A stretch of 64,000 nucleotides of DNA, taken from assembly GCA_963777955.1 (NCBI GenBank), contig CAVZSQ010000015.1, positions 290,899 to 354,898 of the forward strand, given 5' to 3'. Below are positions 5,989 through 24,002 of the stretch, one piece after another. Under the pieces are notes generated by a model. It had not been told where the DNA came from. It made no database searches and was given only the letters and a program-made list of their open reading frames with translations. Origin of the DNA: Calditrichia bacterium (GTDB taxonomy: Bacteria > Calditrichota > Calditrichia > JAJRVZ01). Within the stretch, counting starts at the first letter, position 1, and the number at the start of each line of letters is the position of its first letter. The translations under genes were made by a program, and so were the position numbers.

Positions 5989-6252
5989 ATTTCCTCCAAA
6001 CAGTTGTAATATTATCATCAGATAAATTTCATAAATAAACAACGAATTTATGACACCCTTCCAACATTATCAATATAATTTCGGCTATTTTTCCGGAACT
6101 TTTGAGTAAATTCAGGTTAATTTTTAAAATTTATTTAATTACGACGAATCTTATTCACGCCGAATGTCGTTAGTATAAAATATTATGGCATCTGTCTGAA
6201 CTTATTACACAGGCGACCAGGTTATCAGTTATTATAAAGGAATAAAATTAAA

Positions 6253-8655
6253 ATGAAACAGAGATGTTCTTTGCGGTTTCGACTCATACTTATAATGTAC
6301 TTTGCTTTAATACTACTTGCTGCTGCCGGCCAGGCCTGGTCACAAACGACCATCTATGGTTTTATACGCGACCAGCAGACCAGAGAGGCATTGCTAGCGG
6401 CAAACATACAGATTGCCGGCAGTTATCGTGGTACAATTTCTAACGCTGACGGCAAATTCCTGATTGAACTGCAGCAAATACCGGATACTTTAATCGTCAG
6501 TTATATCGGCTATGAAACTCAAAAAATCATTATCGCTGCCAGGCCTGACCAGGAACTGCAAATATTCCTGAAACGGATACTTCTGGAAATGCCGCCGGTA
6601 GTGGTGATCGCCGAAGATCCGGCTATTGAGATTATGCGTAAAGTTATTAATCGCAAAAAAATATGGCGGGATGCGCTAAAAACCTATCAGGCCAGGGCAT
6701 ACAGCCGGTTGGTACTGGAGAATGACTCGGGTATAGTCTCTATTGCCGAAAGCATTTCCGAAACATACTGGGATCGTGAAAAAGGCCTGCGCGAACTCAT
6801 CAAATCCAAGAAACAGACCAGTAATTTAAGCGAACAGGAGAATCTGGCCATTGCCAGTTACATTCCGAACTTTTATGATGATGATATCGATGAACAGGGA
6901 TACAAGGTGATCGGACCTACCCACCCCGCTGCACTGGATTATTATGATTTTAAACTGGAAAAGGTCCGTTTCCTGGGCGAGCAGGATGTCTTCACTATCC
7001 GGGTTATACCGGCCAGCAAATTACAGCCTACCTTTGAAGGGACGCTCGAGGTGCAGGATAGTACCTTTGCCCTGCTGGCAGTAAATTTGAAACCTGGTTC
7101 TGCTATACTTTATCCCTGGCCGATCCAGGAATGGAATCTGCAGTACCGGCAACAATTCAGTAATTTCGGTAAAATTTACTGGTTCCCGGTGGATTACCGT
7201 GTTGAAGGAACCATCAGAATCGGTCTGACCGGTTTGCAATTCCCCAGAATCCATTATAAGCGTATTACCGGATTGACCGATTACCAGATTAACATCCTTT
7301 TACCCGATTCGCTATATCAGAAAAAAGATTTTCTCTCCGTGGATTCGCTGGCCCTGAAGGATCCGGGTCTTTTTACTGAACGTCAGGCAATAATTCCGCT
7401 GACCCGACTTGAAGAAGTTGCCTATCAAACTCTGGATAGTACTATGACCCTGAGCAAGGCTTTTAAACCAAGCGGATTTCTGGCCAGGTTGGTTGAGGTA
7501 CGGGTTGAGGGCGACCGCGAGGATAAAGGGAAAAAATCCAGTAACTTCTTTACTTATCTGGACCCGCAGGTCTGGTTTAACCGTGTGGATGGATTACATG
7601 CCGGACTAAAGTACACTCCCCGCTTAGCGGAACGGCTGCATTTAAGTCTGCTGGCTGCCTATAAAACCGGTATGAAGCGCGGAGCGTATGCAGCCGGACT
7701 GGAATACCGTTTCAGCACTAAAAATCCTGCACGCTTAAAACTCGCTTACAGCAGTAACACGGATATACGCGGCGGGGATTCTGAAAACTATTCCCGTACC
7801 CTGGCCAGTGTGGCTCCTCTGCTGGCGGCTGCAGACTATTTTGATTATTACTGGAACAAATCATTTCAGGTTGAAACTGCCCTGCCGGTCGGTTTTTTAA
7901 AATCGCTGGTTACAGTGCAGTTTAACAGCGAGATCCATAGTTCGGCCAGTAAACATACTGATTTCAACCTGCTTGCTGCGGATTATAGGCAACGATTCAA
8001 TCCGGGGATAGAATCGGGTAATTTGCGGGCACTTGAATTACAGATCCGTTTTGGAGATACTTATATTCCGTTTGGTATGGTTGGGCAAAAGCGATTGGAG
8101 TTCAAAATTGAAATCAGTTCACCGGGGCTATTCCGCAGTGATTATAACTATAGCAGATATAATGTCGGTGCCGATTATAGTTTGAATACCTGGTTAAAGC
8201 GACGTTTATTACCAATGTCCCTGGATTTACATCTTGCCGGAGGTTTTGCTCAGGGTAAATTGCCCGTGCAGAAATTATATAAAATTGACGGCAGTTTGTC
8301 AGGTTTCAGTCCTTTTGGTACCTTGCGCACCCTGGCTTCCCGGCCCTATGAAGGAGAAAAATATGCAGTTATTTTTCTGGAGCACAATTTCAGGACCATC
8401 CTGTTCGAATTAATGGGTTTGGATTTTCTGACCCGCAATGGAATCGGCATCATCATTCATGGTGCTGCCGGCCGGACCTGGATTTCAGCAGAAAGATTGG
8501 AAACGACAAAATTTAAGATCCGCACTACAGACCGCCTGCATCAGGAGATTGGCCTTTCTCTCAACGGATTGTTTAATATGTTCCGTCTTGATGTAACCCG
8601 GCGCCTGGATAGAAATAATACCTTTATCGGTTTTGGATTATCGAGATTTTTTTAA
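6253..8655 (+). CDS. Outer-membrane protein with CarboxypepD_reg-like N-terminus and DUF5686-type body
   Basis: Signal peptide; GFIRD..T.EAL..ANI...GTISN.DG.F...VSYIGY motif; beta-strand-rich C-terminus ending in Phe. Confidence 0.75.
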   Translation: MKQRCSLRFRLILIMYFALILLAAAGQAWSQTTIYGFIRDQQTREALLAANIQIAGSYRGTISNADGKFLIELQQIPDTLIVSYIGYETQKIIIAARPDQELQIFLKRILLEMPPVVVIAEDPAIEIMRKVINRKKIWRDALKTYQARAYSRLVLENDSGIVSIAESISETYWDREKGLRELIKSKKQTSNLSEQENLAIASYIPNFYDDDIDEQGYKVIGPTHPAALDYYDFKLEKVRFLGEQDVFTIRVIPASKLQPTFEGTLEVQDSTFALLAVNLKPGSAILYPWPIQEWNLQYRQQFSNFGKIYWFPVDYRVEGTIRIGLTGLQFPRIHYKRITGLTDYQINILLPDSLYQKKDFLSVDSLALKDPGLFTERQAIIPLTRLEEVAYQTLDSTMTLSKAFKPSGFLARLVEVRVEGDREDKGKKSSNFFTYLDPQVWFNRVDGLHAGLKYTPRLAERLHLSLLAAYKTGMKRGAYAAGLEYRFSTKNPARLKLAYSSNTDIRGGDSENYSRTLASVAPLLAAADYFDYYWNKSFQVETALPVGFLKSLVTVQFNSEIHSSASKHTDFNLLAADYRQRFNPGIESGNLRALELQIRFGDTYIPFGMVGQKRLEFKIEISSPGLFRSDYNYSRYNVGADYSLNTWLKRRLLPMSLDLHLAGGFAQGKLPVQKLYKIDGSLSGFSPFGTLRTLASRPYEGEKYAVIFLEHNFRTILFELMGLDFLTRNGIGIIIHGAAGRTWISAERLETTKFKIRTTDRLHQEIGLSLNGLFNMFRLDVTRRLDRNNTFIGFGLSRFF

Positions 8656-8693
8656 TTCGGATAACTGTTCTTATCCTGTCATGAGCAGCCGTT

Positions 8694-9560
8694 TTATTTC
8701 TTTAAACTGGTTTCCCCGCTCTGGTCAAAAGAAAAAGTCGATTGGGGGATGCCCAGGTTCGGAACAGAAAGATTTAGATCACCGTTCAATTTAAAGGAAA
8801 GCGGTTTATTGCTGCTGAGTAACTGGTAGACCGATGAGCCAATCTGTATAAAATTAAGGGAAAGCGGCAGAGTTAAAGTCTGATTCTTCTTTTCATTCAG
8901 CGAAAAACCCTTGACGGCCGCGGCCTGCACCCAATTAACACCATTTACAGCCAGTCCGTAGTTTAAGTTATTGAATAAGACTGCAAAAGCATTAGCATTC
9001 TTGACATTTAACTTCAATTCGAGATTAGCCCCGGCCAGATTCAGGCTGTTCAGTTTAATTCCTTCCAGGCTGACATTCGGGATTTTGGGCAACGGTACCG
9101 AGCCTTTTTTCGATATTGGAATACGGGTGGCGCCCAGCACAGGCAGATCGAAGGTCAGGCCGCAATCCAGTTGATAAGCAGAAGTGTCCTGATTGATCAG
9201 GCTGGTGACCGTCTGATACATATCGACCAGTTTCAGAGTCAGCGGCAAACTCACTATATTGTCGGCATAGGCGGCAATTTCGATCCCCTGATTCTGATTG
9301 CCGCTGAGAAAAGAGTTGTCATTTATCAGCAACTGGTAATCGAGTCCCTGCAGTTTTATGGCCAGGTTATTCGTATTCTTGATGTTCAGATCAAACAGCA
9401 GCGTTAACTCTGTAAAAGACAGACCGGTGATTGAAGTATTTGCCACCGAAACTTCCGGCGGCTTGATCTGGGATTGCTGTAAAAGATTCAGCACATTCTG
9501 GCATGAAAATAATAGAAAAGGTATGATCATAATGATGAACAGGCTACGATAGGATTTCAT
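8694..9560 (-). CDS. Lipoprotein with two LEA_2/WHy domains
   Basis: Lipobox LFSC; two repeats of the L.L...N.N..A..L..L.Y.L.IN pattern. Confidence 0.8.
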   Translation of the reverse strand: MKSYRSLFIIMIIPFLLFSCQNVLNLLQQSQIKPPEVSVANTSITGLSFTELTLLFDLNIKNTNNLAIKLQGLDYQLLINDNSFLSGNQNQGIEIAAYADNIVSLPLTLKLVDMYQTVTSLINQDTSAYQLDCGLTFDLPVLGATRIPISKKGSVPLPKIPNVSLEGIKLNSLNLAGANLELKLNVKNANAFAVLFNNLNYGLAVNGVNWVQAAAVKGFSLNEKKNQTLTLPLSLNFIQIGSSVYQLLSSNKPLSFKLNGDLNLSVPNLGIPQSTFSFDQSGETSLKK

Positions 9561-9633: not shown

Positions 9634-11064
9634 CTAATTTTTAGGCAGGGAGATCGTATATTCGCAAAAATTTTCGCTGGTAAAAGTGATTTTTATTTTC
9701 CCGCCGTGCATTTTCAGTTTTTTCTTGACCAGATCCATGTCGCTGAATATTTCTTTACTGTATTCGGCCTCGGTTAAATTTGAGGAAGCCAGACTGGGCA
9801 TAAACAGCAAGCGGATGACCTCGGAGCCAAGGTGATCACCGGGTAAGGCGTTGCCGATGGCTGAAATTTCAGTTTCACTCGAATCGATGGTCTTCTGTAA
9901 TAAGCGCTCAATACGGATCAGCCGGCCGTCATGCCGTAATTTAAATCCGAAAATACGCCGGTCGGCATAAGTCTCGATTTCAATTATACCAGTCGGATTT
10001 TTATTGGCCGACTTCCTCTCTTCGGGTTTTTCGATGCAATAAAAAACGGAAAAACGGATCAGCAGGATCAGGAATTCACGGACAATTTGCTGATGTGAAT
10101 ACGGGATGATTGAATTATCAAAATTTTTATAATTGAACTGAATTTTCCTGCCCAGTTCTTTGGCCAGATTTTCCACCAGATTTTGCAGGGAGCGGATCAT
10201 CAGACCGCCTTCGTATCTGCGGGTGGGACGCAACGAATTATTGAAATGTTTGAAGCGTTGCATCAATAATTTAACATCTTCCAGCATATGCCGGATCTCG
10301 CCCAGTTGAATAACTGCCGGCACAAAATCACTGCCCACAATTTCCGCACGGTCTTTAATTTTGCCTATTTCCACTTCAAAGTTTATCAACTTATCTTTGA
10401 AAAACTTAAGATTAAGCAGGGAAGCATTGCTTTTCAGGTGGTGGACAGTGCGTAAAATTTTATGCAGGATTATTTTGCAGTCCTCGGTCCCATGGGCATT
10501 TTTAAGTTCCGTGTCGATGTTATTCATCTCAATTTCGGTGACTTCAATGAATTCTTTGAGCAGGGGCGGTGCAATGCCCAGAATACAGACCAGCCATTCC
10601 ATTTGCTTCTCGGTCGTTTTTTCGATCTCTTCCAGTTTTTTGGTCAGGGAGATCTGCTTGGTCAGATCTTCAACCGTACAAATGAGTTTGGCAATAGCGC
10701 CCTCGGCCCGGATTCGTTTAAACTTGAAGGACAGGAATTTTGAAGAGGTCCATAAACCCCAGCGATTTTCAAATTGAAATTCGCTGAGATGCAGGGGATT
10801 TAACTCATTGATTGTTTCTTCATCAAGATCGTCACGAAACATCAGATTAAGAAATTCCAGGGTATTGCTGATAATATTTTCAGGCACACGGTGTTCAAGC
10901 AGGGATATAAAATTCTGGCCGGCCGTGACTTTTTGATCGATAATAGATTCCAGGGAAGAAGAGAAATTTTCTTCGATTTCAAATTGCGGATTTAGAAAAA
11001 AAAGACCCTCATCGATCGCGAAGAGGATCAAATTTTTCTCACTGTCAAGTGGTATTGTGTGCAT
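9634..11064 (-). CDS. CheA-like Hpt protein with degenerate HATPase domain (pseudokinase)
   Basis: Paralogous to the C-terminal ~470 aa of the two upstream kinases. Hpt TVHHLKSNASLL intact; N, G1 and G2 boxes lost. Confidence 0.75.
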   Translation of the reverse strand: MHTIPLDSEKNLILFAIDEGLFFLNPQFEIEENFSSSLESIIDQKVTAGQNFISLLEHRVPENIISNTLEFLNLMFRDDLDEETINELNPLHLSEFQFENRWGLWTSSKFLSFKFKRIRAEGAIAKLICTVEDLTKQISLTKKLEEIEKTTEKQMEWLVCILGIAPPLLKEFIEVTEIEMNNIDTELKNAHGTEDCKIILHKILRTVHHLKSNASLLNLKFFKDKLINFEVEIGKIKDRAEIVGSDFVPAVIQLGEIRHMLEDVKLLMQRFKHFNNSLRPTRRYEGGLMIRSLQNLVENLAKELGRKIQFNYKNFDNSIIPYSHQQIVREFLILLIRFSVFYCIEKPEERKSANKNPTGIIEIETYADRRIFGFKLRHDGRLIRIERLLQKTIDSSETEISAIGNALPGDHLGSEVIRLLFMPSLASSNLTEAEYSKEIFSDMDLVKKKLKMHGGKIKITFTSENFCEYTISLPKN

Positions 11065-11222
11065 CCCTAAGTTCTCTTACGACAAAGCGCATCATCAATT
11101 ATTGGGATCAAAAAAATCGAGCTTATAATCCGCACCGGCACATGGATATAAACTCCCCCTGGCGATACCGTCGACCGGTCATTTATCAGCCGGCTGGTTT
11201 TCAGCCCCGGCTAAGACCCTTG

Positions 11223-11669
11223 CTATTCCAGGCACACCACCAGGAAAGATTTATGCTCATTCCAGTTAATTGGAATAACGAAAGACTGGATGTTGTCAGG
11301 CAGTTTGATGTCTTTGGCTTTCCCTTCCACAACTACAGGTACGGAAATCATAAAATCACTGCCGTAGGCCTGCCGGACGTTTCCGGAAATAGTATTGGCA
11401 ATCTCGCCAACCAGATCTTTAATGTCTTCCCTTTTCACCTCTTTGGCGCCCAGAATGATATGGGCAACTGATTTAAGCATTTCTTCGGTTGTCGTAATAT
11501 ACACGCTTCCTTTACGTTTCCCCGATATACCGATAATACCGGTATATTCAAGTACTACGGGAGATTCATCTTTAATGTAAGGAATACCCGTACTGGCTTT
11601 GCTGTTAGTCACCTCATCAAAATAATTCAAAGTACTATCGATAAAAAAATGAAGATCGGTCTCGTTCAT
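11223..11669 (-). CDS. cheX: CheX-family CheY-P phosphatase
   Basis: TGIIGISG...G and GEIANTISGN...ISVPVVV motifs. Confidence 0.88.
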   Translation of the reverse strand: MNETDLHFFIDSTLNYFDEVTNSKASTGIPYIKDESPVVLEYTGIIGISGKRKGSVYITTTEEMLKSVAHIILGAKEVKREDIKDLVGEIANTISGNVRQAYGSDFMISVPVVVEGKAKDIKLPDNIQSFVIPINWNEHKSFLVVCLE

Positions 11670-11686
11670 TTCCAGTTCTCCTTGTT

Positions 11687-12061
11687 TTAATTTTGGGCAA
11701 TAAGCCGTTCAAACGAGCTTCGCAGTTTCTCGGGTGTGAATGGTTTCGGCAAGAAACTTTTAGCACCTAGTTTAATCGCTTTAAGGCCGGTGGCCTTGTC
11801 GGACAATGCAGTAATCACCATCACTTTGACGTCTTTCTTGATCTTCAGCATTTCTTCCAGTACGGTTAAGCCGTCTAATTCCGGCATGGTGATATCGAGG
11901 GTCACCACGTCAGGATCGGTTTGCCTGAAAATATCCAGTGCCACCTTCCCATCTTCGGCTTGGCCGACAACCTCGATATTAAAGTTCTTCAGATGTTTGT
12001 GGATTGCTTCTCTGATGATTAGAGAATCATCTACAATCATCACTTTAACCTTGTCTTTCAT
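11687..12061 (-). CDS. Single-domain response regulator (CheY-like)
   Basis: VDDS, LDITMP, ITAL and PKPF motifs. Confidence 0.9.
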   Translation of the reverse strand: MKDKVKVMIVDDSLIIREAIHKHLKNFNIEVVGQAEDGKVALDIFRQTDPDVVTLDITMPELDGLTVLEEMLKIKKDVKVMVITALSDKATGLKAIKLGAKSFLPKPFTPEKLRSSFERLIAQN

Positions 12062-12130
12062 ACAACCTCCAGTTTTTATATCATTATCGGATTATATCGA
12101 ATTTATCTTGAATAATTATGACATAAATTA

Positions 12131-15007
12131 CTATTGATTTCGGTATAAGGGTAAATTTATTTTAAATTCAAAATTCTTTCCCGGGATATTAGTAATTCTG
12201 ATCTGGCCATCGAATTTCTTTATCTTTTCCTTAATTGTATTCATACCGATTCCCTTCTTGGTAACCGGATCAAATTGTTCCGAAGAATAGATTCCCGGTT
12301 CAAAGATCAATTCGCCCAGTTGTGATTCGGTCCAGGAATCGATGGTGGCAGGCTCCCATTTGCCGAGTATTTTTGCCCGCTGAATCAATTTATCGAATTG
12401 CAGACCACAGCCGTCGTCCCGGTAAGAAAATTCGAAGGTATGCTCATTCAGCCGGGACTGAATTTCAATGATTCCACGCTCTGATTTTTTCCGGTTGCGC
12501 CGTTCCTCAGCCGTCTCAATACCATAGCGAATGGAATTGCGGGCCAGTTGCAGCGTAATATCTTTGACCAGGTTCTTATATAGATGGGGAATGGTTGTGC
12601 CATCGAAATGATCATGGAGCAGGATCACCTGTTTATTCATGGCCGTGCTCATATTCTGAATGAAATTCTTAATGGAATTGAGCATTTTTTCACTCTCATA
12701 ACTGCGTTTGGGCCGGAAGTAACTTTGAATAGTACTCATTTTTTCAATCAGGGAACTGACCTCGCGCAGTGAATATTGAATTTCATTGAGGTGCAGGTTA
12801 ATGCCGATAAAGTCTTTACCCTGGATTTCTTTTTTATCCCGGACCTTGAGAATCAGGTCCTCGGTTTCATCGGCCATATTGGAAAAAAAGGCCAGATCAA
12901 GCAACCCGGAATTCTCTTTAATCGAGCGAACCGACTCGTGTATATTTTCTAAAACCTGGCGGTACACACTTTCATGACCACCCTTGCGCATAACATCGAT
13001 TATGGAGGCCATTTCCATTTGCGCACTGTCGATAAATTCCCGTAACAATTTTGGTTCGACATGCAAAATGCCGATCAACCATTCCAGTCGTTTTTTAGAA
13101 TGAGATTCGACTTCGTTTAAACGTTTCTCCAGGCGTACCTGTTCGGTGATATCATCCACCGCTACAAGCACTTCATTAAACTGGCCGCCATCGATAATTC
13201 GTTTAAACTTAAACGACAGGCATTTCATTTCCGCCAATAATTGATTCTGATGGTTAAAATTCATCTCGATGTTGGTCAGCGGATTAAGTTCATTGATACT
13301 GATCTCATCGACGCCAGGATCAAATATCAATTCTAAAAAACGGGTAACATCATCCAGTCGCTCATCCGAAATTTTATTGCGAAAGAGTTCCAGCAGGTTC
13401 TGCTGGGCTAAATCCCTTCTCTGAAAAATACCTTCCAGGGCCAGTGAGTATTGCGAACTTAATTCGTATTTTGAATTCAACAGAAACAATCCCTCTGCGG
13501 CATTAGCCAGAATATCGTCGGTTTCGCTTTTCGCTCTCTGCAAACTATTGCGCGATTTGCGCAACTCGGTCTCTATTTCACGCCGTTCCGAAATTTCCTG
13601 CTGGGCTTGCTGGTATAATTTGGCATTTTCAATGGCCGTGGCTATCTGTGTACTCAGCAGGCAGGCATTATCGATATCGCTTTCTTTGAAAGCGTTTACC
13701 TGATCACTCTGCATGTCCAGCACGCCGATAAGTTTTTTCCCGACGGTGATCGGTACGGCCAGTTCCGAACGGGTACATTCGCTTGCTTTTTTGATAAAAT
13801 TTGGATTTTTCAGGACATTGTTGCTCACCTGGACTTTGAAGGATTGTGCGGCGGTCCCGACCATGCCCTCGCCTACCTGCAGGGTCAGATCTTTGGAAAA
13901 ATAGGTACTGTATCCACCGGCCAGCGCTTTTAAGCGCAAGGTCTTCTCATCGTTATCAAGCAGCAGTAACATAACCCCGTAAAAACTAAAAGCGTCACAA
14001 ACCGAGGTGACAATGTCCTTCAACAGGGTATCCAGATCCAGGGATCGGTTTATTTTCTGGCCGATTTCATTAAGCAACGTTGCCTGGCGCGCCCGATGAA
14101 GGGCATCTTCTTCTGCTTTCTTCCGTTTATGCTCCAATTCTTCAATTTTTCTGCTCTCCAGTGCATCAAAATAAAGCGCGGCTGCTCCAAGCAGAGCCAT
14201 ATTCTCACGGTCCGATACTTTTATCTCCAGGTTCTGAACCGAACGCTGGAAGACAAAGGAGCGCAGACCCTGATTCAAACTGGTTTTGATCAATTGATAG
14301 GCCCTGGCCAGAGGACCGCCTAAAATAATGATCTCGGGATCAAGGGCACATATAATTGATTTTATAACATCACTGAGATTTAAGCCGAACTGTTTAAAAT
14401 GTTCCCGGGCTTTTTTATCCCCTTTTACTGCCAGTTCATAAACCGTTTCGAAAGGTTCCTGCGCTATGTTTTTAAAATATTGATTGCTGCAGTAATATTC
14501 AAAATCATGATCACGATAAGGTATTTTCCCGAATTCACCCACCCCGCAATTGATCCCTGAATATAGTTTATTCTCGATGATGATTCCTGCACCCATCCCC
14601 TCACCCAGGATCAAGCCTACTACATTTGAATATTTTTTGCCACTGCCAAAATGTTTTTCTCCGGCCGCAAAACAATTGGCATCATTATTTACGTACACCG
14701 GTACTTTAAAATGTTTATGCAATTTGTCTTTCAGGTGCACTTCTTTCCAGGATGGAATACGGGTCACTTCGTAAACGATCCCTTTTTCCACATCAACAAT
14801 ACTCGGTACGCCAATGCCGATACCGGCAACCTGCGCTCCGAAGATTGCCTCGATATGCATGATTAACTCATTGATAATCATGTCCTGGCTGGCTGCTGAA
14901 GAAATTTTATACTGATGAAAAGAATTCAATTCCTGGCCGCTGACCTTCCCCAGGCGCGCATAAATACCGTCTATATCGATGCCAATAATCTGTTTGTCTG
15001 TATTCAT
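12131..15007 (-). CDS. ROK-GAF-(PAS-like)-Hpt-HATPase fusion, class III/CheA-like histidine kinase
   Basis: ROK motifs GIDI, NNDANC and GEFG; GAF motif SELAVPI..G...GVLD; HATPase RNSIRYGIE, DDGCGL and KGIGMN. No predicted TM segment. Confidence 0.82.
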   Translation of the reverse strand: MNTDKQIIGIDIDGIYARLGKVSGQELNSFHQYKISSAASQDMIINELIMHIEAIFGAQVAGIGIGVPSIVDVEKGIVYEVTRIPSWKEVHLKDKLHKHFKVPVYVNNDANCFAAGEKHFGSGKKYSNVVGLILGEGMGAGIIIENKLYSGINCGVGEFGKIPYRDHDFEYYCSNQYFKNIAQEPFETVYELAVKGDKKAREHFKQFGLNLSDVIKSIICALDPEIIILGGPLARAYQLIKTSLNQGLRSFVFQRSVQNLEIKVSDRENMALLGAAALYFDALESRKIEELEHKRKKAEEDALHRARQATLLNEIGQKINRSLDLDTLLKDIVTSVCDAFSFYGVMLLLLDNDEKTLRLKALAGGYSTYFSKDLTLQVGEGMVGTAAQSFKVQVSNNVLKNPNFIKKASECTRSELAVPITVGKKLIGVLDMQSDQVNAFKESDIDNACLLSTQIATAIENAKLYQQAQQEISERREIETELRKSRNSLQRAKSETDDILANAAEGLFLLNSKYELSSQYSLALEGIFQRRDLAQQNLLELFRNKISDERLDDVTRFLELIFDPGVDEISINELNPLTNIEMNFNHQNQLLAEMKCLSFKFKRIIDGGQFNEVLVAVDDITEQVRLEKRLNEVESHSKKRLEWLIGILHVEPKLLREFIDSAQMEMASIIDVMRKGGHESVYRQVLENIHESVRSIKENSGLLDLAFFSNMADETEDLILKVRDKKEIQGKDFIGINLHLNEIQYSLREVSSLIEKMSTIQSYFRPKRSYESEKMLNSIKNFIQNMSTAMNKQVILLHDHFDGTTIPHLYKNLVKDITLQLARNSIRYGIETAEERRNRKKSERGIIEIQSRLNEHTFEFSYRDDGCGLQFDKLIQRAKILGKWEPATIDSWTESQLGELIFEPGIYSSEQFDPVTKKGIGMNTIKEKIKKFDGQIRITNIPGKNFEFKINLPLYRNQ

Positions 15008-15043
15008 CCTGACTCCATTACAAAATCTGTCAAATTTGAGTAT

Positions 15044-18000
15044 TTAAGATTCTGCTGCGGCAAACGTTTTTTCTTTCAAAGCTGCTTCTTTGGTCTTTTT
15101 GGTTAACGGAATTTTAATCGAAAATTCACAAAATTTTCCGGTTTTTGTATTTATCTTAATGCTTCCGCCCAGGCGATCAATTTTGTCTTTGACCAGATCC
15201 ATGCCTACGCCCCGCCCTGCGATCAGACCCGCTTTCTCCGAAGTCGATATTCCGGATTTATATATAATTTCAGCAACCTGCTGATTAGTCCAGCCATCAA
15301 TTTCTTCGGCTGACCAGTGGCCGGAAGTCCTTGCTTTAGCGCGGAGTTTATCGAGTTGCAGACCGCGTCCATCGTCGCGGAAGGTGAAAGCGAAAGTCTT
15401 TTCATTTAAACTCATTTCGATCTCGATGCGGGCCTGCGGATCTTTTTTAAGTACAGACCGTTCCTCGGGATTTTCAATGCCGTGGTAAATGGCATTACGA
15501 ACCATCTGGATAATTATTTCACGCGTGGTCAGACGATAATGGTATGGTATATTCCCGGCATCAAATTTATCGTAAACCAGTTTTACCTTTTTACCCTGCT
15601 CCTGGGCCAGATTATTGATTAAATTCTCGATCGATTTGATAAATAACTCGCTTTCATAACTGCGTTTAGGCCGGAAATGAGAATGCACATTGCTTACGCG
15701 TTCGATCAGATTGTGCAATTCATCCAGGGTCCGCCGGATGTCCCCCAGACGCAACACCAGCGGCACAAAATCTGCGCCGCTTAATTTTGGTTTCTTTTTA
15801 AGATCTTCGATGCGGTCTTCAAATTCATGCGCTTTTTCCACGAAAAATTTTAAATCCAGCAGAGAAGCATTGCCTTTGATGATGTGCATCGAACGATATA
15901 CTTTTTCCAGGACCGGGATAAAATTGCTAACCTGTTCATCCTGCCGCAGGACTTTATCGATGTAGTCTAATTCCAGATAGGCACTTTCAGAGAATTCCTG
16001 CAAAAGTTTTGGCTCCACATGCAAAATGCTCAACAGCCAGTCCATTTGTTTTTTACTCATCGCCAGTGATTCTTCCAGTTTCCGGGCCAGCACAATCTGG
16101 TCGGAAAGATCGTTGACTGTAACGATCAGCTCGGAGACTTTATTTTCATCGTCGATTACCCGTTTGAATTTAAAGGCTAAATACTTTGATTTCAGCCAGA
16201 CGTCTGTCTCATCCCTGAAATTAAATTCGATCTCACTCAGCGGATTGAGATCTTTCAGGGTATCTTCATCAACATCGGTCTTAAACATTAATTCCAGAAA
16301 TTCCTGCAAATTGGTGAAGAGCTTTGTGGTCATTCTTTTTTCGACGATGTCCAGGAAATTTTTTCTGGCCGCACGTTTTTCTTCTAAAATTTTTTCAACT
16401 GCCAGCGAGTACTGCGAGCGTAATTTCAATTCAGGATCGATCAGGAAAATGCCCTCTTCCACATTACGCATAATATTATCGGTCTCTCGCTTCGAACGGC
16501 TCAGCAAACGATTTCTTTCTTTCAGTTCCTGGGTTCGCTCGGCAACCTGTGATTCCAGGAATATCCTTTGCCGGTCTACCCGTCTCATACTGAGCCGATA
16601 AATACTATAGGCCAGGCCCAGGACAAAGAAGGCGGCCAATATTCTAAACCACCATCTTTGCCAGAATGGCGGGGCAATTATAATTTTAATGGACGTTCCG
16701 GCTCTGTTCCAGAGGCCATCACTATTCGTCCCGGCGACTTTAAAGACATATTCGCCGCCATCCAGGTTGGTATAGTTGGCATACCGGCGGTTACCACACT
16801 GGATCCAATCGCGGTCAAATCCTTCCAGTTTATAGGCATAGATGTTTTTTTCGGGATTACTATAATCCAGGGCGGCAAATTCAAATGCGAAAAAATTCTT
16901 GCGGTAAGATAATTGTAATTCATGTATTTCTGAAATGGTAGAATCTAAACTTACTTCCTTATCAAAAATCTTAAACGAAGTAACGATCAGCGGAGGAACA
17001 AACTGGTGTTCCTTTACCGCCTTCGGGTAGAAACGATTATAACCATTAATACCGCCAAAGAACAATTCACCTGACTTGCTTTTAAAGCAGGCCCCCGCGT
17101 TGAATTCATTACTCTGCAATCCGTCATTGGCATCAAAGTTCTTAAAAGTCAAAGAATCCGGAGCGAAGCGGGACAACCCGCGATTGGTACTGATCCATAA
17201 ATACCCATCGTCATCCTCGGCCAATCCATAAATGGTACTGTGGGGTAATCCCTCACTTTCGGTAAAACGGGTAAAAATATTTTCGTCGGGATCAAACCGG
17301 TTTAAACCGCCGCCGAGCGTGCCGATCCACATTATTCCTTTACGATCCTGCAAGATTGCCGAAACACGTTCGTGGCTGAGTGAATTTTGATTATCCGGCT
17401 CGGTCATGTAACGATTAAAAGTTTTACTTACCGGATTGAATTTATTCAATCCTTTATAAGTTCCTATCCAGATAAATCCCTTTTTGTCTTCGTACAAGCA
17501 TAAGATACGGTTATCGGTTAAACTGTTTTTATCGGCCGGATCATGGCGGTAATGACGAAAATTATTGCGGTCACTGATAAACTGATCCAATCCGGCCCAG
17601 GTGCCAACCCACATATTGCCCAGGTGATCCTGCAGCATGGCCCGGACACTATTGTCGCTGAGACCGGACAAGTCCTTGGGATTGTATTTGTAAACTTTCA
17701 CTGAATTGCGGGCGGGATCATATTGACATAATCCGCCACCATTCGTACCGAACCAGATCATTCCGTATTGATCTTCATCGATCACCCTGATAAAATCATC
17801 ACTCAGTGCGTTCTTCTTGCGGGCCTCTGCGCTGAAGACAGTTAACTTATTGGTCCGTTTATCAAAACGGTTGACTCCCTTGCTGGTGCCCAGCCATAAA
17901 TTTTCTCTGCGGTCAACCAGAATCGACCAGACCGTGTTATCGGTTAAACTGTTAGGATCTCCCGGTTCGTTTTTGTAGTGACCGAATCTTCTCTTCTTCC

Positions 18001-19117
18001 AGTCGAAATGATTTAATCCGGCGCCATAGGTGCCAAGCCAAATTGTACCTGATTTGTCGGCGTAGATACAACGCAGCAGGTCGCCGCTCAGGCTGTTATA
18101 TTTGGCAGGATCGGAGAGCACCTGCCAGAATTTATTGCTGAGCGGATCCAGTATATTTAGTCCCAAATCAGTCGCCAGCCAGATCAATCCGGTTCGATCA
18201 CAGAATATAGAATGGATCATGTTATTGTTCAGGCTGTTCTTGTCGTTTTTCCTGGCCAGGTAAGACTTAAATTTCTTGCGTTGTTTATCCAGTTTATTCA
18301 AGCCATGCTGTGTGCCAATCCACAGATTGTGCTGGGGATCTTCCAGAATGCTCAGAATATCATTGCTGCTCAGCGAATTGGCCTGGCGTGGATCGGCGAT
18401 GTATCGCCTGAACCGGAATTCTCCAGATTTAAGTTTCTGGGCAGAACACAAGCCACCCCCCTGCGTACCGATCCATATCACTCCAGATTTATCCTGATAC
18501 AATACAGTAATTTTCTCCGTGCCGAAACTGAAGGGATCCGATTCATCGTTCCAGAAATGGGTGATTTGCCTGGTTTGGATATTTAATAAATCTAATCCGC
18601 CGCCATCAGTACCGATCCACAGATAAATCGTACTGTCCACCAGCAGGGCTGAAACATAGTCGCTGCTGATCGTGTTTTCATTCTTTGGATCATAACGAAA
18701 ACATTCAAATTTTTCGGTGAAGCGATTGAATCGATTAAGACCGCCGCCCAGCGTACCGATCCATAGATTTCCGGCAGAATCACCGGTCACTGCATTTATC
18801 CAGTTATCACTGAGCGAAAGACTATCCTGCTGCACATGTTTGAAAATCTTAAAATTGTAACCATCATAACGATTCAGGCCGTCCTGTGTTCCGAACCAAA
18901 GGAATCCCTGCTCGTCCTGATAAACATCTTCCACAGAACTTTGTGATAAACCCTGTTCGATAGAAATTCGTTTAAAATTCAGGTTATAATTTTGTGCAGC
19001 CAGTTCACCGAAAAATCCAGGACTGCTCAAAATTAAAAACAGACACAGATAATTGTGATACGATCTGACTTTAACAATCGCACAACGGATGGTTGATCCC
19101 CCGCTACTGCTAATCAT
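15044..19117 (-). CDS. Membrane sensor kinase: Reg_prop beta-propeller repeats + Y_Y_Y + TM + Hpt + CheA-type HATPase (no CheW domain)
   Basis: Many D..G.LW.GT..GGL repeats; YAYKLEGFD...YTNL..G.Y.F.V; PPFWQRWWF TM; SMHIIKGNASLL; RNAIYHGIE, DDGRGL, AGRGVGMDLV. Confidence 0.88.
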   Translation of the reverse strand: MISSSGGSTIRCAIVKVRSYHNYLCLFLILSSPGFFGELAAQNYNLNFKRISIEQGLSQSSVEDVYQDEQGFLWFGTQDGLNRYDGYNFKIFKHVQQDSLSLSDNWINAVTGDSAGNLWIGTLGGGLNRFNRFTEKFECFRYDPKNENTISSDYVSALLVDSTIYLWIGTDGGGLDLLNIQTRQITHFWNDESDPFSFGTEKITVLYQDKSGVIWIGTQGGGLCSAQKLKSGEFRFRRYIADPRQANSLSSNDILSILEDPQHNLWIGTQHGLNKLDKQRKKFKSYLARKNDKNSLNNNMIHSIFCDRTGLIWLATDLGLNILDPLSNKFWQVLSDPAKYNSLSGDLLRCIYADKSGTIWLGTYGAGLNHFDWKKRRFGHYKNEPGDPNSLTDNTVWSILVDRRENLWLGTSKGVNRFDKRTNKLTVFSAEARKKNALSDDFIRVIDEDQYGMIWFGTNGGGLCQYDPARNSVKVYKYNPKDLSGLSDNSVRAMLQDHLGNMWVGTWAGLDQFISDRNNFRHYRHDPADKNSLTDNRILCLYEDKKGFIWIGTYKGLNKFNPVSKTFNRYMTEPDNQNSLSHERVSAILQDRKGIMWIGTLGGGLNRFDPDENIFTRFTESEGLPHSTIYGLAEDDDGYLWISTNRGLSRFAPDSLTFKNFDANDGLQSNEFNAGACFKSKSGELFFGGINGYNRFYPKAVKEHQFVPPLIVTSFKIFDKEVSLDSTISEIHELQLSYRKNFFAFEFAALDYSNPEKNIYAYKLEGFDRDWIQCGNRRYANYTNLDGGEYVFKVAGTNSDGLWNRAGTSIKIIIAPPFWQRWWFRILAAFFVLGLAYSIYRLSMRRVDRQRIFLESQVAERTQELKERNRLLSRSKRETDNIMRNVEEGIFLIDPELKLRSQYSLAVEKILEEKRAARKNFLDIVEKRMTTKLFTNLQEFLELMFKTDVDEDTLKDLNPLSEIEFNFRDETDVWLKSKYLAFKFKRVIDDENKVSELIVTVNDLSDQIVLARKLEESLAMSKKQMDWLLSILHVEPKLLQEFSESAYLELDYIDKVLRQDEQVSNFIPVLEKVYRSMHIIKGNASLLDLKFFVEKAHEFEDRIEDLKKKPKLSGADFVPLVLRLGDIRRTLDELHNLIERVSNVHSHFRPKRSYESELFIKSIENLINNLAQEQGKKVKLVYDKFDAGNIPYHYRLTTREIIIQMVRNAIYHGIENPEERSVLKKDPQARIEIEMSLNEKTFAFTFRDDGRGLQLDKLRAKARTSGHWSAEEIDGWTNQQVAEIIYKSGISTSEKAGLIAGRGVGMDLVKDKIDRLGGSIKINTKTGKFCEFSIKIPLTKKTKEAALKEKTFAAAES

Positions 19118-19349
19118 ATCCTCATCCTGTACTTTTCAGTTATAAACATTTTCATTGATAATTCGCAAAACTCACATTGCAGGACATATTTCTATCATAA
19201 ATACTTACTTAAGTCCTAAATGTTTAAATTCATTATCGTCAAAAAACAGAGTTACTTTATTGAGTACGGTAAAGGAAGAGTAATAAGTATGAGCTGAGGT
19301 TAAAAACGGATTATATTTTACTTAGCACACCCGGCAGACTATTGCCGGA

Positions 19350-19724
19350 TCATTTTGCAATAAGGCGTTCGAAGGCATCTTTTAATTTTTGCGGGCCAAA
19401 TGGCTTGGTAATGTAACTTTTTGCGCCCAGACGGAGTGCTTTGAGACCGGTGGCTTTATCGGCTAAGGCAGTAATAACAACAACCTGTACATCCTTATCC
19501 AGCCGGATCATTTCATCCAGGACATCAAAGCCATCGAGTCCCGGCATGGTTATATCGAGAGTAACTATCTCCGGACTATGCTTTTTAAACATCTCCAGAG
19601 CCGAGTTACCATCGGTGGCGGTTCCGATGATCTTAACGTTATAATTCTCCAGGAATTTAGAGATCGCTTTGCGAACCACCAACGAATCGTCAACGATGAG
19701 TAATTTTTTTTGATTTTTATCCAT
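19350..19724 (-). CDS. Single-domain response regulator (CheY-like), paralogue of 11687-12061
   Basis: VDDS, LDITMP, ITALADKATGLKAL and TKPF motifs. Confidence 0.9.
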   Translation of the reverse strand: MDKNQKKLLIVDDSLVVRKAISKFLENYNVKIIGTATDGNSALEMFKKHSPEIVTLDITMPGLDGFDVLDEMIRLDKDVQVVVITALADKATGLKALRLGAKSYITKPFGPQKLKDAFERLIAK

Positions 19725-19814
19725 AAGGTTAATATATCACCATAAGTAGGTTTGTTTGCCAAATATATATTATATAAATGAAAGTTTCAAGCATCTACAG
19801 CGGTTATCAACTTT

Positions 19815-22773
19815 TTATTCAAAATTGAAATTTATCAGCCAGCGGAACTTTTGATGGTCCTTATTGACAGCCAGGTTGCCGATCCACAAAGGAAAATCCA
19901 TCCCGATGCTCTTTAAATTGAATAAAAAATCGGCCCACTTCCCCATTGGCAGCTGTAAACCGAATCCGGCTGATTTTTGAAATTGGCCCAGGGCAGGCAT
20001 GGATCCGGACCAGACCGAACCGATATCGGCAAATACATAAGTCGTTAAATCCCGCAGCATGAACAGGCTGCTATAGCGTAATGGATTAGGAATCACGATA
20101 TCCAGATTGCCGGCAATTATTTTATTGTCCAGGATTGGAGTCGGACTGCCGCTCAGCGAAGCACCGCGCACATTACCGCCACCTGCTTTAAATAAATGAC
20201 CATTCTTACGCCAGGGATAAGGCAGACTACCCTTGCTGCGGTAGAATGGTTCGTTGAATTCATCCCAGCCGTTTGCACCACTTAAGTTAAACTGGAATTG
20301 TGCCGGAACTCTTCCCTTGCCGTAGCCGGTATAGCAGCGCAGCACTGCTTGCCAGTCTGAACGTGCATTCGAGAAAATCCGGCTGGCCTCCAGATAAATC
20401 TGAGCAAAGCCGTAAGCGCTGCCTAAAAACGATGTATGGGTAAAAACCGTCACTTCGTATTTTTTCCTCCAACTGTGGCGGTAGTTGGCTGCGGTTTTAA
20501 AATTGAGGAATAGAGTAGTAACATCATTTTCATCCCAGGCTGCCATTAAATAGGATGGATTAAAAACGTGATGGCCGGTTAATCCTAATCCATACTCGAG
20601 CGACTTAAGATAATTCTGCGACAGTTGACCGGTCAATCCGCAACTGCCCCCCTCCCGGCCGTCCAGACGGTACAGGCTTAGATCAAACCGGACGTTATTT
20701 CCGATAGCATAAAATGGAGTACGGTAAGAAACTTCCGCGTCGACCGCCGGATGGGCCGTTTTATACCATACCCGGGCGTTCAGTTTATGATCGATGTTCA
20801 GGTAACTCCCATTTAATTTGATACCTGCCCTGGCCTGATCATAGTCATTGTAAAAAAATAACGGCCAGATTTCCCAGATATATTTATCTAAAGGCGGAGC
20901 ATAACTCTGGTAACGCATCCAGTGAAATTCCTGTTCGGGCAGGCAGGAGGAAGTATTATTCAAACTGTTTATATCCGTCAAACTCAGTGTTGAATCAAGT
21001 TTGACCATTCTGATTCCGTCCGACAGGGTCAAATTGGCCGTGTATTTTTTTTGACTGAAATGCCAGTAAGGTAAAGTGATCCGGTTGCCGGCCGGTTCGC
21101 TGCTGTTATCGACCGGTACATGAAAACGTTGTACGGTGCCATCTTTTAAATATACGCTGAAATCAACCGGCATGAAGATTTCGGCTTTTCTATCCAGATT
21201 AACCTGGCATTTATAAAAGCGCCGGCCATCAATTTTTTCCCAATGCCCCCGGTAGCCCTGGACCGCATAATCCAAGTTTCCGGCTGGTGCTCAACCACTG
21301 TTCAAAAAACCAGTCCAGATCGCGGTTTGCCGTTTTTTCCATCACTGTAATGAAATCCCGGGTGTAAGGATGGTGAAAACACCATTGATTAAAATATTCC
21401 TGCAGGCCCAGGGAGAACAAACTATCACCCAGGGTATATTCCAGCATGAATAAAACCATGGCCATTTTAGAATATTGCAAAATGTAGATATCATCCCCCA
21501 GATAATCAGAAGGCAAGGCGATAGGATCCCGGTCGAATCCGGATTTACTGTAACGCAGGTACTGCCAAGCCGTGCTCCTGCGGTCGTCATCGCGGTAGGC
21601 GGTTTTCTGTTCAAACCAGCCGGATCTGATCTTCGCTAAATTATCTTTCACTCCGAAGATTGCTTCCATCGCTTTAATTTCAGCAAAGGTGGCAAATCCT
21701 TCATCCAGCCAGCCTTGCTCGGTCTGGTTATTAGCCAGCAGGCCGTAAAACCAGAAATGAGCCATTTCATGCAGCAGTAAGGCGCGGAACTCACCCGGTT
21801 CATACTCCGGATTGATATAATCGTTAAGCAATACGATCTGCGGATATTCAATACCGCCGGCCCGGACATACGTATCAGCAATAGTTAATTGTTGATAAGG
21901 ATAATGCCCGAAAGTATCATTAAAATACTGCAGACCCCGCACCGCCCATTCGTTAACCTGTTTCCAGGATTCGCGGTTATAATCCAGTGCCAGGACATTG
22001 ATGGTGATCCCCTGCCATTCCGACTGCATCAATACATAGGCCGGATCGGCAGTCCAGGCAAAATCATGCACATTTTTTGCTTCATAGTACCATTGAACCG
22101 GCCCGGGCGTCTCATATTCTTCTGACTGTTGCCCTTGACTGCTGCTACTGTCCTTTGCGGAGTTCGCTGCGGAACTACTGAGCAAATTGCCGGTAGCACC
22201 TACTGTAAATCCCGCCGGGACATTTATAGTGACCAGGAAATCCCCCCATTCCTGATAAAATTCGTTATCCAGATGCTGGTGCAGATGCCATCCGTCCCGA
22301 TCATATACCACCGGGGTGACATACCAATTGCCGATGTCGTAATGATTGCCGAGATAGCCATAACGATCACTGGCCGGTGGAATCATTACGGTAAATTTAA
22401 AGTGCCAGCGAACCGATTCACCCGGAGCAAGCGGATGGTGCAGTTGTGTTTTCAGCAGAGTCTGATCGATACTGAAATTTTTCTGCAATGAGTCATTTTC
22501 CTGTATGGTATGGATGGTAATTCCGCCCAGATCGGCTTTAAGGTCGGGCAGGAATAAAGAACCGGCACGGTATTTATTCATATATAAATGGAAGTACAGC
22601 ACCCGCAGGGTATCAGCCGAATGGTTGGTATAAAGTAATGTTTCGTCGATATTCAGATGGTTCAGATTGATATCGAGTTTAACATCCATGGTGTAGTGCA
22701 CGTATTGCTGGAAATACTGTGTTTGATCCGGAGTGGACAGCAAATCCATCCGGGGATTGCAGCAGAACTGCAA
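19815..22773 (-). CDS. Secreted M1-family Zn aminopeptidase with long C-terminal region; frameshift near 21265
   Basis: GGIEYP, HEMAHFWF...WLDEG and DLDWFFEQW motifs; continues in the 19815-21275 frame (LDYAV...). Confidence 0.82.
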
Positions 22774-22796: not shown

Positions 22797-24002
22797 TTAT
22801 TCCCCGCCATGTTCATGCTTTTCGATATCATGTGTTAAACCCTCTGCCCGGCTGATGGATTTACGGCCGAATTTCTTTTTTACCAGGTCTTCTATAACAT
22901 CCAGCCGGTCATTATCCTGCAGTCCGCATTCAAATATGTTCATTTGCCTGCCCAGGTCATCGCTGAATCCCGAGATGCCCACACCGATCAATCGCACTTT
23001 CCTGCCTTGCTGATAATTATCAATAAATAATTCTTTCACTACCGAAAAAATTTTTTCAGTATTGGCTGTGACACCCGGGATGGTCTGGACACGGGTAATA
23101 GTATCAAAACTCTGATAACGTAATTTAAGCTGGATGGTCCTGCCGGTTAATCCTTTCTGACGCAAACGGTAGGCCACTTTTTCAGCCAGTTGAAACAGTG
23201 TACGCTGCAGCATATCCAGATCGGTGATGTCCTCGCCAAAAGTGACTTCATTACTCACCGACTTCACTTCATGTCCGGAAATTACCGGGCGGTCGTCCTG
23301 ACCGTGTGCCAGGGCATAAAAATGCTCCCCCAGTTTACCGAAATATTGTTCGAGCAGATCGGCAGGAAATTGACGCAGGTCGCCGATGGTATAGATGCCC
23401 AGATGATTAAGTTTGGCAATAGTTTTTTTACCGGCACCCCAGATGTAGACCACGGCCAGGGGATCCAGGAATTCCTGGATCCCTTGGCCGGCTTCGACGA
23501 TCACCAATCCATCAGGTTTCCTGAGATCCGAAGCAATCTTGGCAATGAATTTATTGGGTGCTATACCGACTGAAGCGGTCAGATCCTGGTTGCGCAAGAT
23601 CCGTATTTTAAGTTCCCGGCCCAGGTTTTCCACGTCCCCGAAAAGATGGAAACTTCCGGTAATGTCCAGGAATGCTTCGTCGATCGACAACGGTTCAACC
23701 TGGTCGGTGAATTCATATAATAATTCGAAGATTTCAGCGCTGACCTGTGAATACAGGTGCCCGTTGGGTGGAACATAAATCCCCTGCGGACATAATTTGT
23801 AAGCCTGGGATATCGGCATGGCGGAATGAACACCGTACCGGCGTGCTTCATAGGAACAGGTGGAGACCACTCCCCGGCCTTTACCCTGTCTGGGATCAGC
23901 ACCGACAATCAGAGGTTTATTTTTGTACTGTGGATGTTCTCTTTGCTCGATGGCGGCAAAAAATGCATCCATATCGACATGCAGAATATACCGGACAGCC
24001 AC
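22797..24002 (-). CDS. dinB: DNA polymerase IV (Y family)
   Basis: HVDMDAFFA, SYEAR.YGV.SAM, SIDEAFLD; clamp-binding-like QMNIF. Confidence 0.93.
   Translation of the reverse strand: MAVRYILHVDMDAFFAAIEQREHPQYKNKPLIVGADPRQGKGRGVVSTCSYEARRYGVHSAMPISQAYKLCPQGIYVPPNGHLYSQVSAEIFELLYEFTDQVEPLSIDEAFLDITGSFHLFGDVENLGRELKIRILRNQDLTASVGIAPNKFIAKIASDLRKPDGLVIVEAGQGIQEFLDPLAVVYIWGAGKKTIAKLNHLGIYTIGDLRQFPADLLEQYFGKLGEHFYALAHGQDDRPVISGHEVKSVSNEVTFGEDITDLDMLQRTLFQLAEKVAYRLRQKGLTGRTIQLKLRYQSFDTITRVQTIPGVTANTEKIFSVVKELFIDNYQQGRKVRLIGVGISGFSDDLGRQMNIFECGLQDNDRLDVIEDLVKKKFGRKSISRAEGLTHDIEKHEHGGE

Follow-up and report, generated by a model that had tools for sequence, protein, structure and literature searches.

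What can a kinase-like protein with no sensor and a blocked nucleotide pocket contribute to a signalling pathway assembled from CheA-type kinases, CheY and CheX? The question is raised by a six-gene operon of an uncultured Calditrichia bacterium, located in the 64,000-nucleotide stretch of DNA analysed here (assembly GCA_963777955.1, contig CAVZSQ010000015.1, positions 290,899 to 354,898; hereafter the window). The last gene of the operon encodes K3 (11064-9634, minus strand), which, as judged from its residues, is the most conserved kinase-like member of the operon yet catalytically dead, and which represents a CheA-type pseudokinase family. Calditrichota genomes compared with this one are labelled G000, G004 and so on, G000 being the genome that holds the window.

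Architecture of the Operon and Class Assignment

All six open reading frames lie on the minus strand, co-oriented as a preliminary description made from the sequence had reported. CheY1 (19724-19350) and CheY2 (12061-11687) are stand-alone receivers of 124 residues, both matched by the Pfam family Response_reg, with Asp57 and Lys107 intact in the former and Asp56 and Lys106 in the latter. CheY2 is the conserved CheY of the cassette, while cheY1, upstream of K1, is present in only part of the relatives. CheX (11669-11223; 148 residues) matches the Pfam family of that name, retains its ExxN motif (Glu89, Asn92) and is the sole CheX-family match of the genome; identity reaches 63-86% among 19 aligned orthologues from K3 cassettes and 51-57% in two further cassettes.

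The three kinase-like proteins differ in their sensory N-termini. K1 (19117-15044; 1357 residues) is a class III sensor kinase with a predicted signal peptide, periplasmic Reg_prop beta-propellers, a Y_Y_Y domain, one transmembrane helix near residue 826, a PAS-like domain, an Hpt domain and a CheA-type ATPase, for which Pfam returns Reg_prop, Y_Y_Y, HATPase_c and a weak Hpt match below cut-off. Its periplasmic propeller and Y_Y_Y input resembles that of the Bacteroidetes hybrid two-component sensors, whose Reg_prop/Y_Y_Y modules have a glycan-sensing role, whereas its output is an Hpt-CheA-type kinase with CheY rather than a HisKA-REC-AraC chain. K2 (15007-12131; 958 residues) is a soluble ROK-GAF-PAS-like-Hpt-ATPase protein with Pfam matches to ROK, GAF and HATPase_c. 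K3 (476 residues) has no sensory region besides the PAS-like domain common to all three, and Pfam finds in it only a weak Hpt match, again below cut-off.

The preliminary description credited the three proteins with a common core of PAS-like domain, Hpt domain, RPxRxYE motif and CheA-type HATPase. The cores are indeed 37-42% identical in pairwise comparison, but they do not amount to three intact kinases. The PAS-like domain has no Pfam match and is recognized from AlphaFold models and fold searches; the RPxRxYE motif, which aligns with the linker just ahead of the CheA P4 domain, occurs in all three and is variable in homologues; and HATPase_c misses K3. The models of K3 (predicted local distance difference test score, pLDDT, 78; predicted template modelling score, pTM, 0.41) and of the K1 core (pLDDT 89.5, pTM 0.67) both run from an alpha/beta PAS-like domain through a helix and a helical bundle to the ATPase, and neither has a P3 hairpin. 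The K3 model matched the P4 domain of Thermotoga maritima CheA (1i58; Z 16.5, root-mean-square deviation 3.7, 162 residues aligned) and its P1 domain (1tqg; Z 14.3, root-mean-square deviation 2.4, 104 aligned), although unrelated helical bundles give a Z similar to the latter, and the K1 ATPase matched CheA with an E of 1e-21.

Class III histidine kinases (HKIII), as reportedly defined by Adebali and colleagues in 2017, consist of a sensor fused to Hpt and a CheA-type ATPase, have no dimerisation or CheW domain, and are accompanied by a single-domain regulator and CheX; many of these systems, though not all, are said to include a soluble chemoreceptor. Assignment of the operon to this class, with CheY and CheX alongside, is supported by its architecture and that reported definition, in line with the preliminary description. 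No CheW (P5) domain was found by Pfam in K1, K2 or K3, whose chains extend no more than about 20 residues past the ATPase fold, and neither P3 nor P5 was matched in these proteins or among 68 K3 homologues; NCBIfam CheA scores of the cluster proteins fall far under the cut-off. Among active-type homologues, Hpt was detected in 59 of 61 and HATPase_c in all 61, any family not listed in that tally having at most one member. P1, P3, P4 and P5 are the four core CheA domains according to the accessible text of PMC10782961, and because two of them, P3 and P5, are absent, the cluster kinases are not CheA. The operon has the P1 and P4 folds of a CheA-CheY-CheX core such as that of T. maritima and differs from it in lacking P3 and P5, in taking fused sensors as input and in residing in a genome where FliM was not found. 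The accessible portions of PMC12471899 and PMC4316618 add nothing on class III kinases.

The claim that sensors are wired directly to CheY without a CheW domain is likewise supported, and it is the missing P5 domain alone that points to independence from receptors. The window had been described as devoid of methyl-accepting chemotaxis protein (MCP), CheW, CheR and CheB genes; the only MCP match and both CheW matches of the genome do lie on another contig, CheR and CheB not having been searched by family. Absence from the locus is uninformative as a demonstration of receptor independence, because CheW and MCP matches occur elsewhere in 30/30 genomes with K3. The preliminary description overlooked both the conserved pseudokinase nature of K3 and the loss of the phosphorylatable histidine from K2.

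K3 as a Conserved Pseudokinase Family

In K3, the N-box Asn is replaced by Phe338, the adenine-binding Asp of the G1 box by His378 (codon 9931..9933, minus strand), a family signature, and the last G1 Gly by Leu382, while the G2 box is gone. The N-box Asn, G1 DxGxG and G2 GxGxG motifs of active kinases are therefore all lost, and the phospho-accepting His of the Hpt domain, kept here as His208, is not conserved in the family. A profile search returned 100 proteins, from which two active ROK-PAS kinases were removed to leave 98 K3 homologues. His stands in place of the G1 Asp in 94 of these, the other four having a gap (3) or Ala (1) there; none retains the last G1 Gly (95 replaced, 3 gaps), and the N-box Asn survives in 15; a G2-like pattern was matched in a single protein (P0030). 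The Hpt His is kept in 51/98 and replaced by Tyr in 21/98, and the Lys and Gly that follow it are mostly lost. The 150 best cluster representatives, taken as a control, include 126 with every catalytic mark, and the nine that show the Asp-to-His change are without exception 490-510 residues long. Pfam HATPase_c is detected in 1/68 K3 proteins, as against 61/61 of the active type.

In a FastTree phylogeny of 70 sequences, with partial and truncated rows excluded, K3 proteins form one clade (support 1.0) nested among Calditrichota K1 proteins, a pattern suggesting that K3 probably arose once, through duplication and sensor loss. Against a congeneric genome, K3 has a ratio of nonsynonymous to synonymous substitution rates (dN/dS) of 0.018 over 287 codons, and its dead ATPase part one of 0.013, compared with 0.058 for the K1 core. 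Identities of K3 and K1 core in four genome pairs (97/90, 92/91, 80/61 and 80/67%) are higher for K3 in all four, in one of them by a single point. K3 is present in 30 of the 80 Calditrichota genomes searched, spanning six families, and 18 of 19 K3 loci in genome contigs are labelled as Calditrichota, the remaining one only as 'bacterium', in a pattern-based search that distant members can escape. Within the literature searched, which covered few subscription journals, nothing was found on an HKIII pseudokinase or on HKIII in Calditrichota.

Conservation of Gene Order

Upstream DNA was examined for 27 of the 30 K3 genomes, leaving out G001 (contig edge), G054 and G070. In all 27 loci cheX lies directly upstream of K3, in 26 cheY lies ahead of cheX, and in 23 a sensor-bearing paralogue precedes cheY. 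Conservation of all six genes in order, raised in the preliminary description as a check, holds in only four genomes (G000, G004, G006 and G007, all of the window's family), and the six-gene order was accordingly rejected as the conserved unit; a core of sensor kinase, cheY, cheX and K3, on the other hand, is conserved across Calditrichota families. Most K3 cassettes have no K2. In G028, G059 and G067 a cheY-cheX-K3 trio stands without a neighbouring kinase and K3 is the sole match at E<=1e-40, although G028 also has more distant HKIII-type genes. Eight kinase-cheY(-cheX) cassettes were found without an adjacent K3 (G011, a second copy in G023, G029, G037, G038, G048, G056 and G058), and among the phylum's 78 genomes with a completeness of 80% or more, 41 have an HKIII-type match.

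A Probable Hub of Active and Dead Sensor Kinases

K1 is predicted to be active, with His1078 (codon 15884..15886, minus strand; the predicted autophosphorylation site), Asn1208, Asp1248, Gly1252, the DDGxG box and the G2 GxGxG all intact in an alignment with the P4 domain of T. maritima CheA. The first Asp of its DDGxG box corresponds, by count on the alignment, to CheA Asp449, the presumed adenine-binding residue. In K2 the N-box and G1 box are intact, while the Hpt His position is occupied by Arg694 and the first G2 Gly by Lys917. The Hpt His of K2 is also lost in the congeneric genome and is kept in K2 of four other genomes aligned. The K2 core has a dN/dS of 0.062 against the congeneric genome, as expected under purifying selection.

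The N-terminus of K2 matches ROK with an E of 2.7e-38. In seven aligned ROK fusions the Asn-Asp (Asp109) and Glu158 regions, which we take to be sugar-binding, are kept and the phosphate-1 ATP loop is divergent in all seven, a pattern that fits a ROK domain serving as a probable sugar sensor. Fusions of ROK to HKIII recur in 10 of 150 representatives and in two other proteins (P0090, P0092, P0109, P0115, P0116, P0123, P0136, P0142, P0154, P0161, P0165 and P0176), and these too are probably sugar sensors.

The preliminary description regarded the operon as a self-contained pathway, a view that does not survive comparison with the rest of the genome. The core has nine paralogues: three belong to the operon, and the other six, two of them at C3:184149 and C13:316905, are dispersed and have propeller, GAF, PAS or receiver domains as inputs. 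The genome has only one CheX and only two such CheYs, the receiver that ranks next matching at E 4e-19 versus 5e-52; none of the six dispersed paralogues has such a CheY beside it. The operon is thus probably the hub of a genome-wide HKIII network rather than a closed unit. Catalysis has been lost independently in four lineages of sensor-bearing paralogues whose genes are kept, namely in K2 in this genus, in K1 of G006, in K1 cut after the Hpt domain in G023, G049 and G050, and in the sole copy in G020 and G022. In G023, G049 and G050 the cassette sensor (L019:3517-7518, L071:2720-6724 and L072:3128-7123; frames of 1332-1335 residues) ends right after a His-less Hpt, the kinase domain being absent and the gene kept. 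These cassettes contain no active kinase, and phosphate must therefore come from elsewhere; the dead sensors presumably act through partners.

Two further loci bear on how inputs may be attached to such cores. At C15:7239-12928 of G000 (L068), an HKIII with an N-terminal receiver follows a hybrid kinase and a gene that we presume to be CheR-like, and a similar trio is present in G004; through this locus the network may receive signals of the classical two-component kind. In G028 (L057:6507-13845), a HAMP-HKIII and CheY are followed by a fusion of a CheX-like domain to a PAS-Hpt(Gln)-ATPase protein and by a CheX-like-PAS hybrid kinase, an arrangement in which CheX-like domains appear to serve as N-terminal input modules.

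Candidate Outputs

As far as the literature was searched, class III kinases are without an experimentally defined output. Flagellar, type IV pilus and gliding genes had been named in the preliminary description as targets for a search. FliM, flagellin, PilT, T2SSE and T2SSF (and hence PilT/PilB and PilC) have no match in the window's genome (91.8% complete), and no PilT, T2SSE or T2SSF was detected in any of G000, G004, G006 and G008 (91-93% complete). GldM of Bacteroidetes gliding was found in 0/5 genomes, in a search whose controls were silent too, and PorP/SprF gave weak matches in 4/5. The search for FliM came up empty in 21 of 30 K3 genomes, compared with 10 of 50 others. FliM and a PilT-family match (E<=1e-60) are both undetected in eight of the 30 K3 genomes (91-95% complete), six of the window's family and two of another; G007, which is among these eight, has an ATPase of the PilB/GspE type.

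Three other candidate outputs are present in G000, and none has been shown to track with K3. An mglA-mglB pair lies at C13:122387-127500 with a HAMP protein, a second Roadblock-like open reading frame, a receiver and a PAS kinase, and an MglB-like Roadblock protein was found in all five genomes tested, all of them K3-positive. An Agl-Glt-like core at C22:879121-889927 (L090) encodes a pair of large TPR proteins, MotA/TolQ, two ExbD proteins and a GltG-like protein, and another gltG-like copy lies at C22:394283-395474. The third, at C13:178255-187853 (L054), is a separate chemosensory cluster, in which ParA, a receiver and CheW accompany the only MCP match of the genome and a multi-Hpt CheA-CheW-REC protein in two frames. 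We take this cluster to resemble a Chp/Tfp-type system, in a genome where pilus ATPases were not detected. Exactly one MCP match is found in 22 of 30 K3 genomes.

Proposed Mechanism and Rival Explanations

Three observations link K3 to CheX, namely the constant adjacency of their genes, the G028 protein in which a CheX/CheC-like domain is fused ahead of the PAS-Hpt-ATPase core, and a predicted complex. Run on custom-made alignments, the K3-CheX prediction scored 0.43, versus 0.00 for the best of three controls, with at least 90% of contacts agreeing between runs and a partner pLDDT of at least 80. Of 157 solved complexes, 116 reach the mark set for this score, as do 2 of 215 mismatched pairs, but scores at or under 0.60 account for only 18 of the 157 and for both mismatches. 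The prediction lends the CheX link weak support.

A precedent for a dead kinase that reads a regulator is Caulobacter DivL, which the accessible text of PMC4211667 describes as able to bind the phosphorylated single-domain regulator DivK~P. DivL and K3 are alike in being dead kinases with a PAS region that are under selection and sit beside a single-domain regulator, and the Tyr found in place of His in 21/98 K3 homologues adds to the likeness. DivL, in contrast, is a class I (DHp-CA) protein, whereas K3 combines an Hpt bundle with a CheA-type P4 domain and a blocked pocket. DivL is used here as a working analogy for the proposed binding of CheY~P by K3.

The model that we favour, at somewhat better than even confidence, places K3 at the output of the network. 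K1 and the six dispersed paralogues carry their own inputs, and the CheA-type ATPase would phosphorylate the Hpt His, as in CheA, with no need of receptors or CheW. The phosphate would go mainly to CheY2, CheY1 being the only other CheY of this type, and would be removed by the single CheX, such that many inputs would merge into one CheY~P pool. K3, which apparently cannot bind ATP and can do without its His, would take part without any catalysis of its own, holding CheX and reading CheY~P in the way that DivL reads DivK~P, and would act as an output or feedback node. His-less sensors such as K2, the probable sugar sensor, would work via an active partner in mixed complexes. In the weakest step of the model, the output in this genome would be something other than a flagellar motor or type IV pili, with cell polarity or surface behaviour via MglA/MglB as the foremost candidate. 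A more specific version, in which K3 with bound CheX takes the place of FliM as the CheY~P effector and steers MglA/MglB polarity and an Agl-Glt-like motor, is a long shot.

Several points weigh against this model. It is built from sequence and prediction, with the chemistry and the K3-CheY contact drawn from analogy, and a complex score of 0.43 falls where the tool is more often wrong than right unless the pairing was likely beforehand. K3 is dispensable to the design, given the eight K1-type cassettes without an adjacent K3. Of the 30 K3 genomes, 22 have a PilT-family match and nine have FliM; the window's genome is 91.8% complete, and related genomes are not independent of one another. The Agl-Glt-like ExbD gene occurs in 76 of 80 genomes and does not track with K3, so that this core was rejected as a co-occurring output on the grounds that its marker is non-discriminating, and an Agl-Glt core by itself is unlikely to drive motility according to the accessible text of PMC3169522.

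The strongest rival, which we nevertheless consider unlikely, is that K3 acts as an allosteric co-subunit of K1, K2 and the dispersed paralogues through its PAS-like domain and helix, with no direct contact with CheX or CheY~P. Conservation of that domain and helix in K3 and active kinases alike is consistent with such a role, and the four independent catalytic losses in kept sensor paralogues imply signalling through partners; K2 is under purifying selection. K3 is, however, tied more tightly to cheX (27/27) than to a kinase (23/27), and the trios of G028, G059 and G067 place it beside CheY and CheX with no neighbouring kinase.

It is less probable still that the operon is an ordinary HKIII system that modulates motility by type IV pili, the role proposed in 2017, and that the pilus genes are simply missing from the assembly. 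A PilT-family match in 66 of the 80 genomes searched speaks for this explanation, as does its frequency among K3 genomes, and Adebali et al. (2017), as paraphrased in the accessible text of PMC6501615, reported that these kinases always co-occur with the pilus marker pilT. The eight K3 genomes in which PilT is undetected, from two families, break that reported link, and their cassettes are intact and under strong selection; in G000, G004, G006 and G008, moreover, T2SSE and T2SSF are undetected as well.

A relay in which K2, with its ATPase intact and its His lost, phosphorylates His208 of K3, which then passes the phosphate to CheY, is very unlikely as a general mechanism. The complementary pattern is exact in this genome, and Rhodobacter sphaeroides CheA3 and CheA4 provide a precedent for a CheA-type paralogue with a dead ATPase working beside an active one (PMC10782961, accessible text). 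CheA3, unlike K3, is described there as having an essential phospho-His and a CheW domain, whereas K3 has no CheW domain and its His is kept in barely more than half of its homologues, with the following Lys and Gly mostly lost; K2, in turn, keeps its His in four other genomes aligned and is missing from most K3 cassettes. The K2/K3 pair was ruled out as a conserved mechanism on account of the K2 His in relatives and the poor conservation of the K3 His, and the relay could be a side path in this genus. That K3 and K2 are decaying, functionless duplicates, as their lost catalytic residues and the splitting of K3 into two frames in four assemblies might suggest, can practically be dismissed in view of their low dN/dS and of K3 forming a single clade with fixed family-specific residues in 30/80 genomes of six families, the more so as similar splits in unrelated genes of the window's assembly suggest indel errors.

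Flanking Sequence

The operon is flanked, over positions 6253-9560 and 22797-24002 of the window, by genes for a DUF5686/carboxypeptidase-regulatory outer-membrane protein and a double LEA_2 lipoprotein and by dinB. The lipoprotein gene lies 73 bases past K3, and LEA_2 directly after K3 is not conserved in relatives; the outer-membrane gene and dinB also adjoin the cassette in G004 and G007, as judged by N-terminal likeness. At 3306-6042 and 19815-22773, two genes are each split over two overlapping frames; the first gene we presume to be pyruvate phosphate dikinase-like, and the second is that of an M1 peptidase with its C-terminal part. The frequency of such splits in this assembly suggests indel errors. 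A candidate sigma-70-like site upstream of cheY1 (19762..19790, minus strand) matches the consensus at 10 of 12 positions, in a promoter and terminator scan at chance level, with 25 sigma-70-like sites versus 23.8 in shuffles.

Significance

The operon shares with the HKIII systems of the reported definition a sensor joined to Hpt and a CheA-type ATPase, with a single-domain regulator and CheX alongside. It differs from them in its conserved sensorless pseudokinase after cheX, in the lack of a soluble chemoreceptor in the cassette, in a pilT gene found neither here nor in seven other K3 genomes, in its nine paralogues for two CheYs and in its recurrent ROK-domain input. It also brings in a family of CheA-type pseudokinases in which an Asp-to-His replacement in the nucleotide pocket is fixed and which is under tighter constraint than the active paralogue, and the K1 core (about residues 870-1357), K2, K3, two CheYs and CheX form a complete, mostly soluble set for reconstitution in vitro. 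Class III kinases link chemotaxis signalling with the two-component kind. Should K3 read CheY~P, this would answer what CheY targets in cells without a flagellar switch. Were K3 also the effector in FliM's place, Calditrichota without flagella or pili would have a receptor-free, array-free taxis to sugars or glycans, built on a mixed pool of active and dead sensor kinases.

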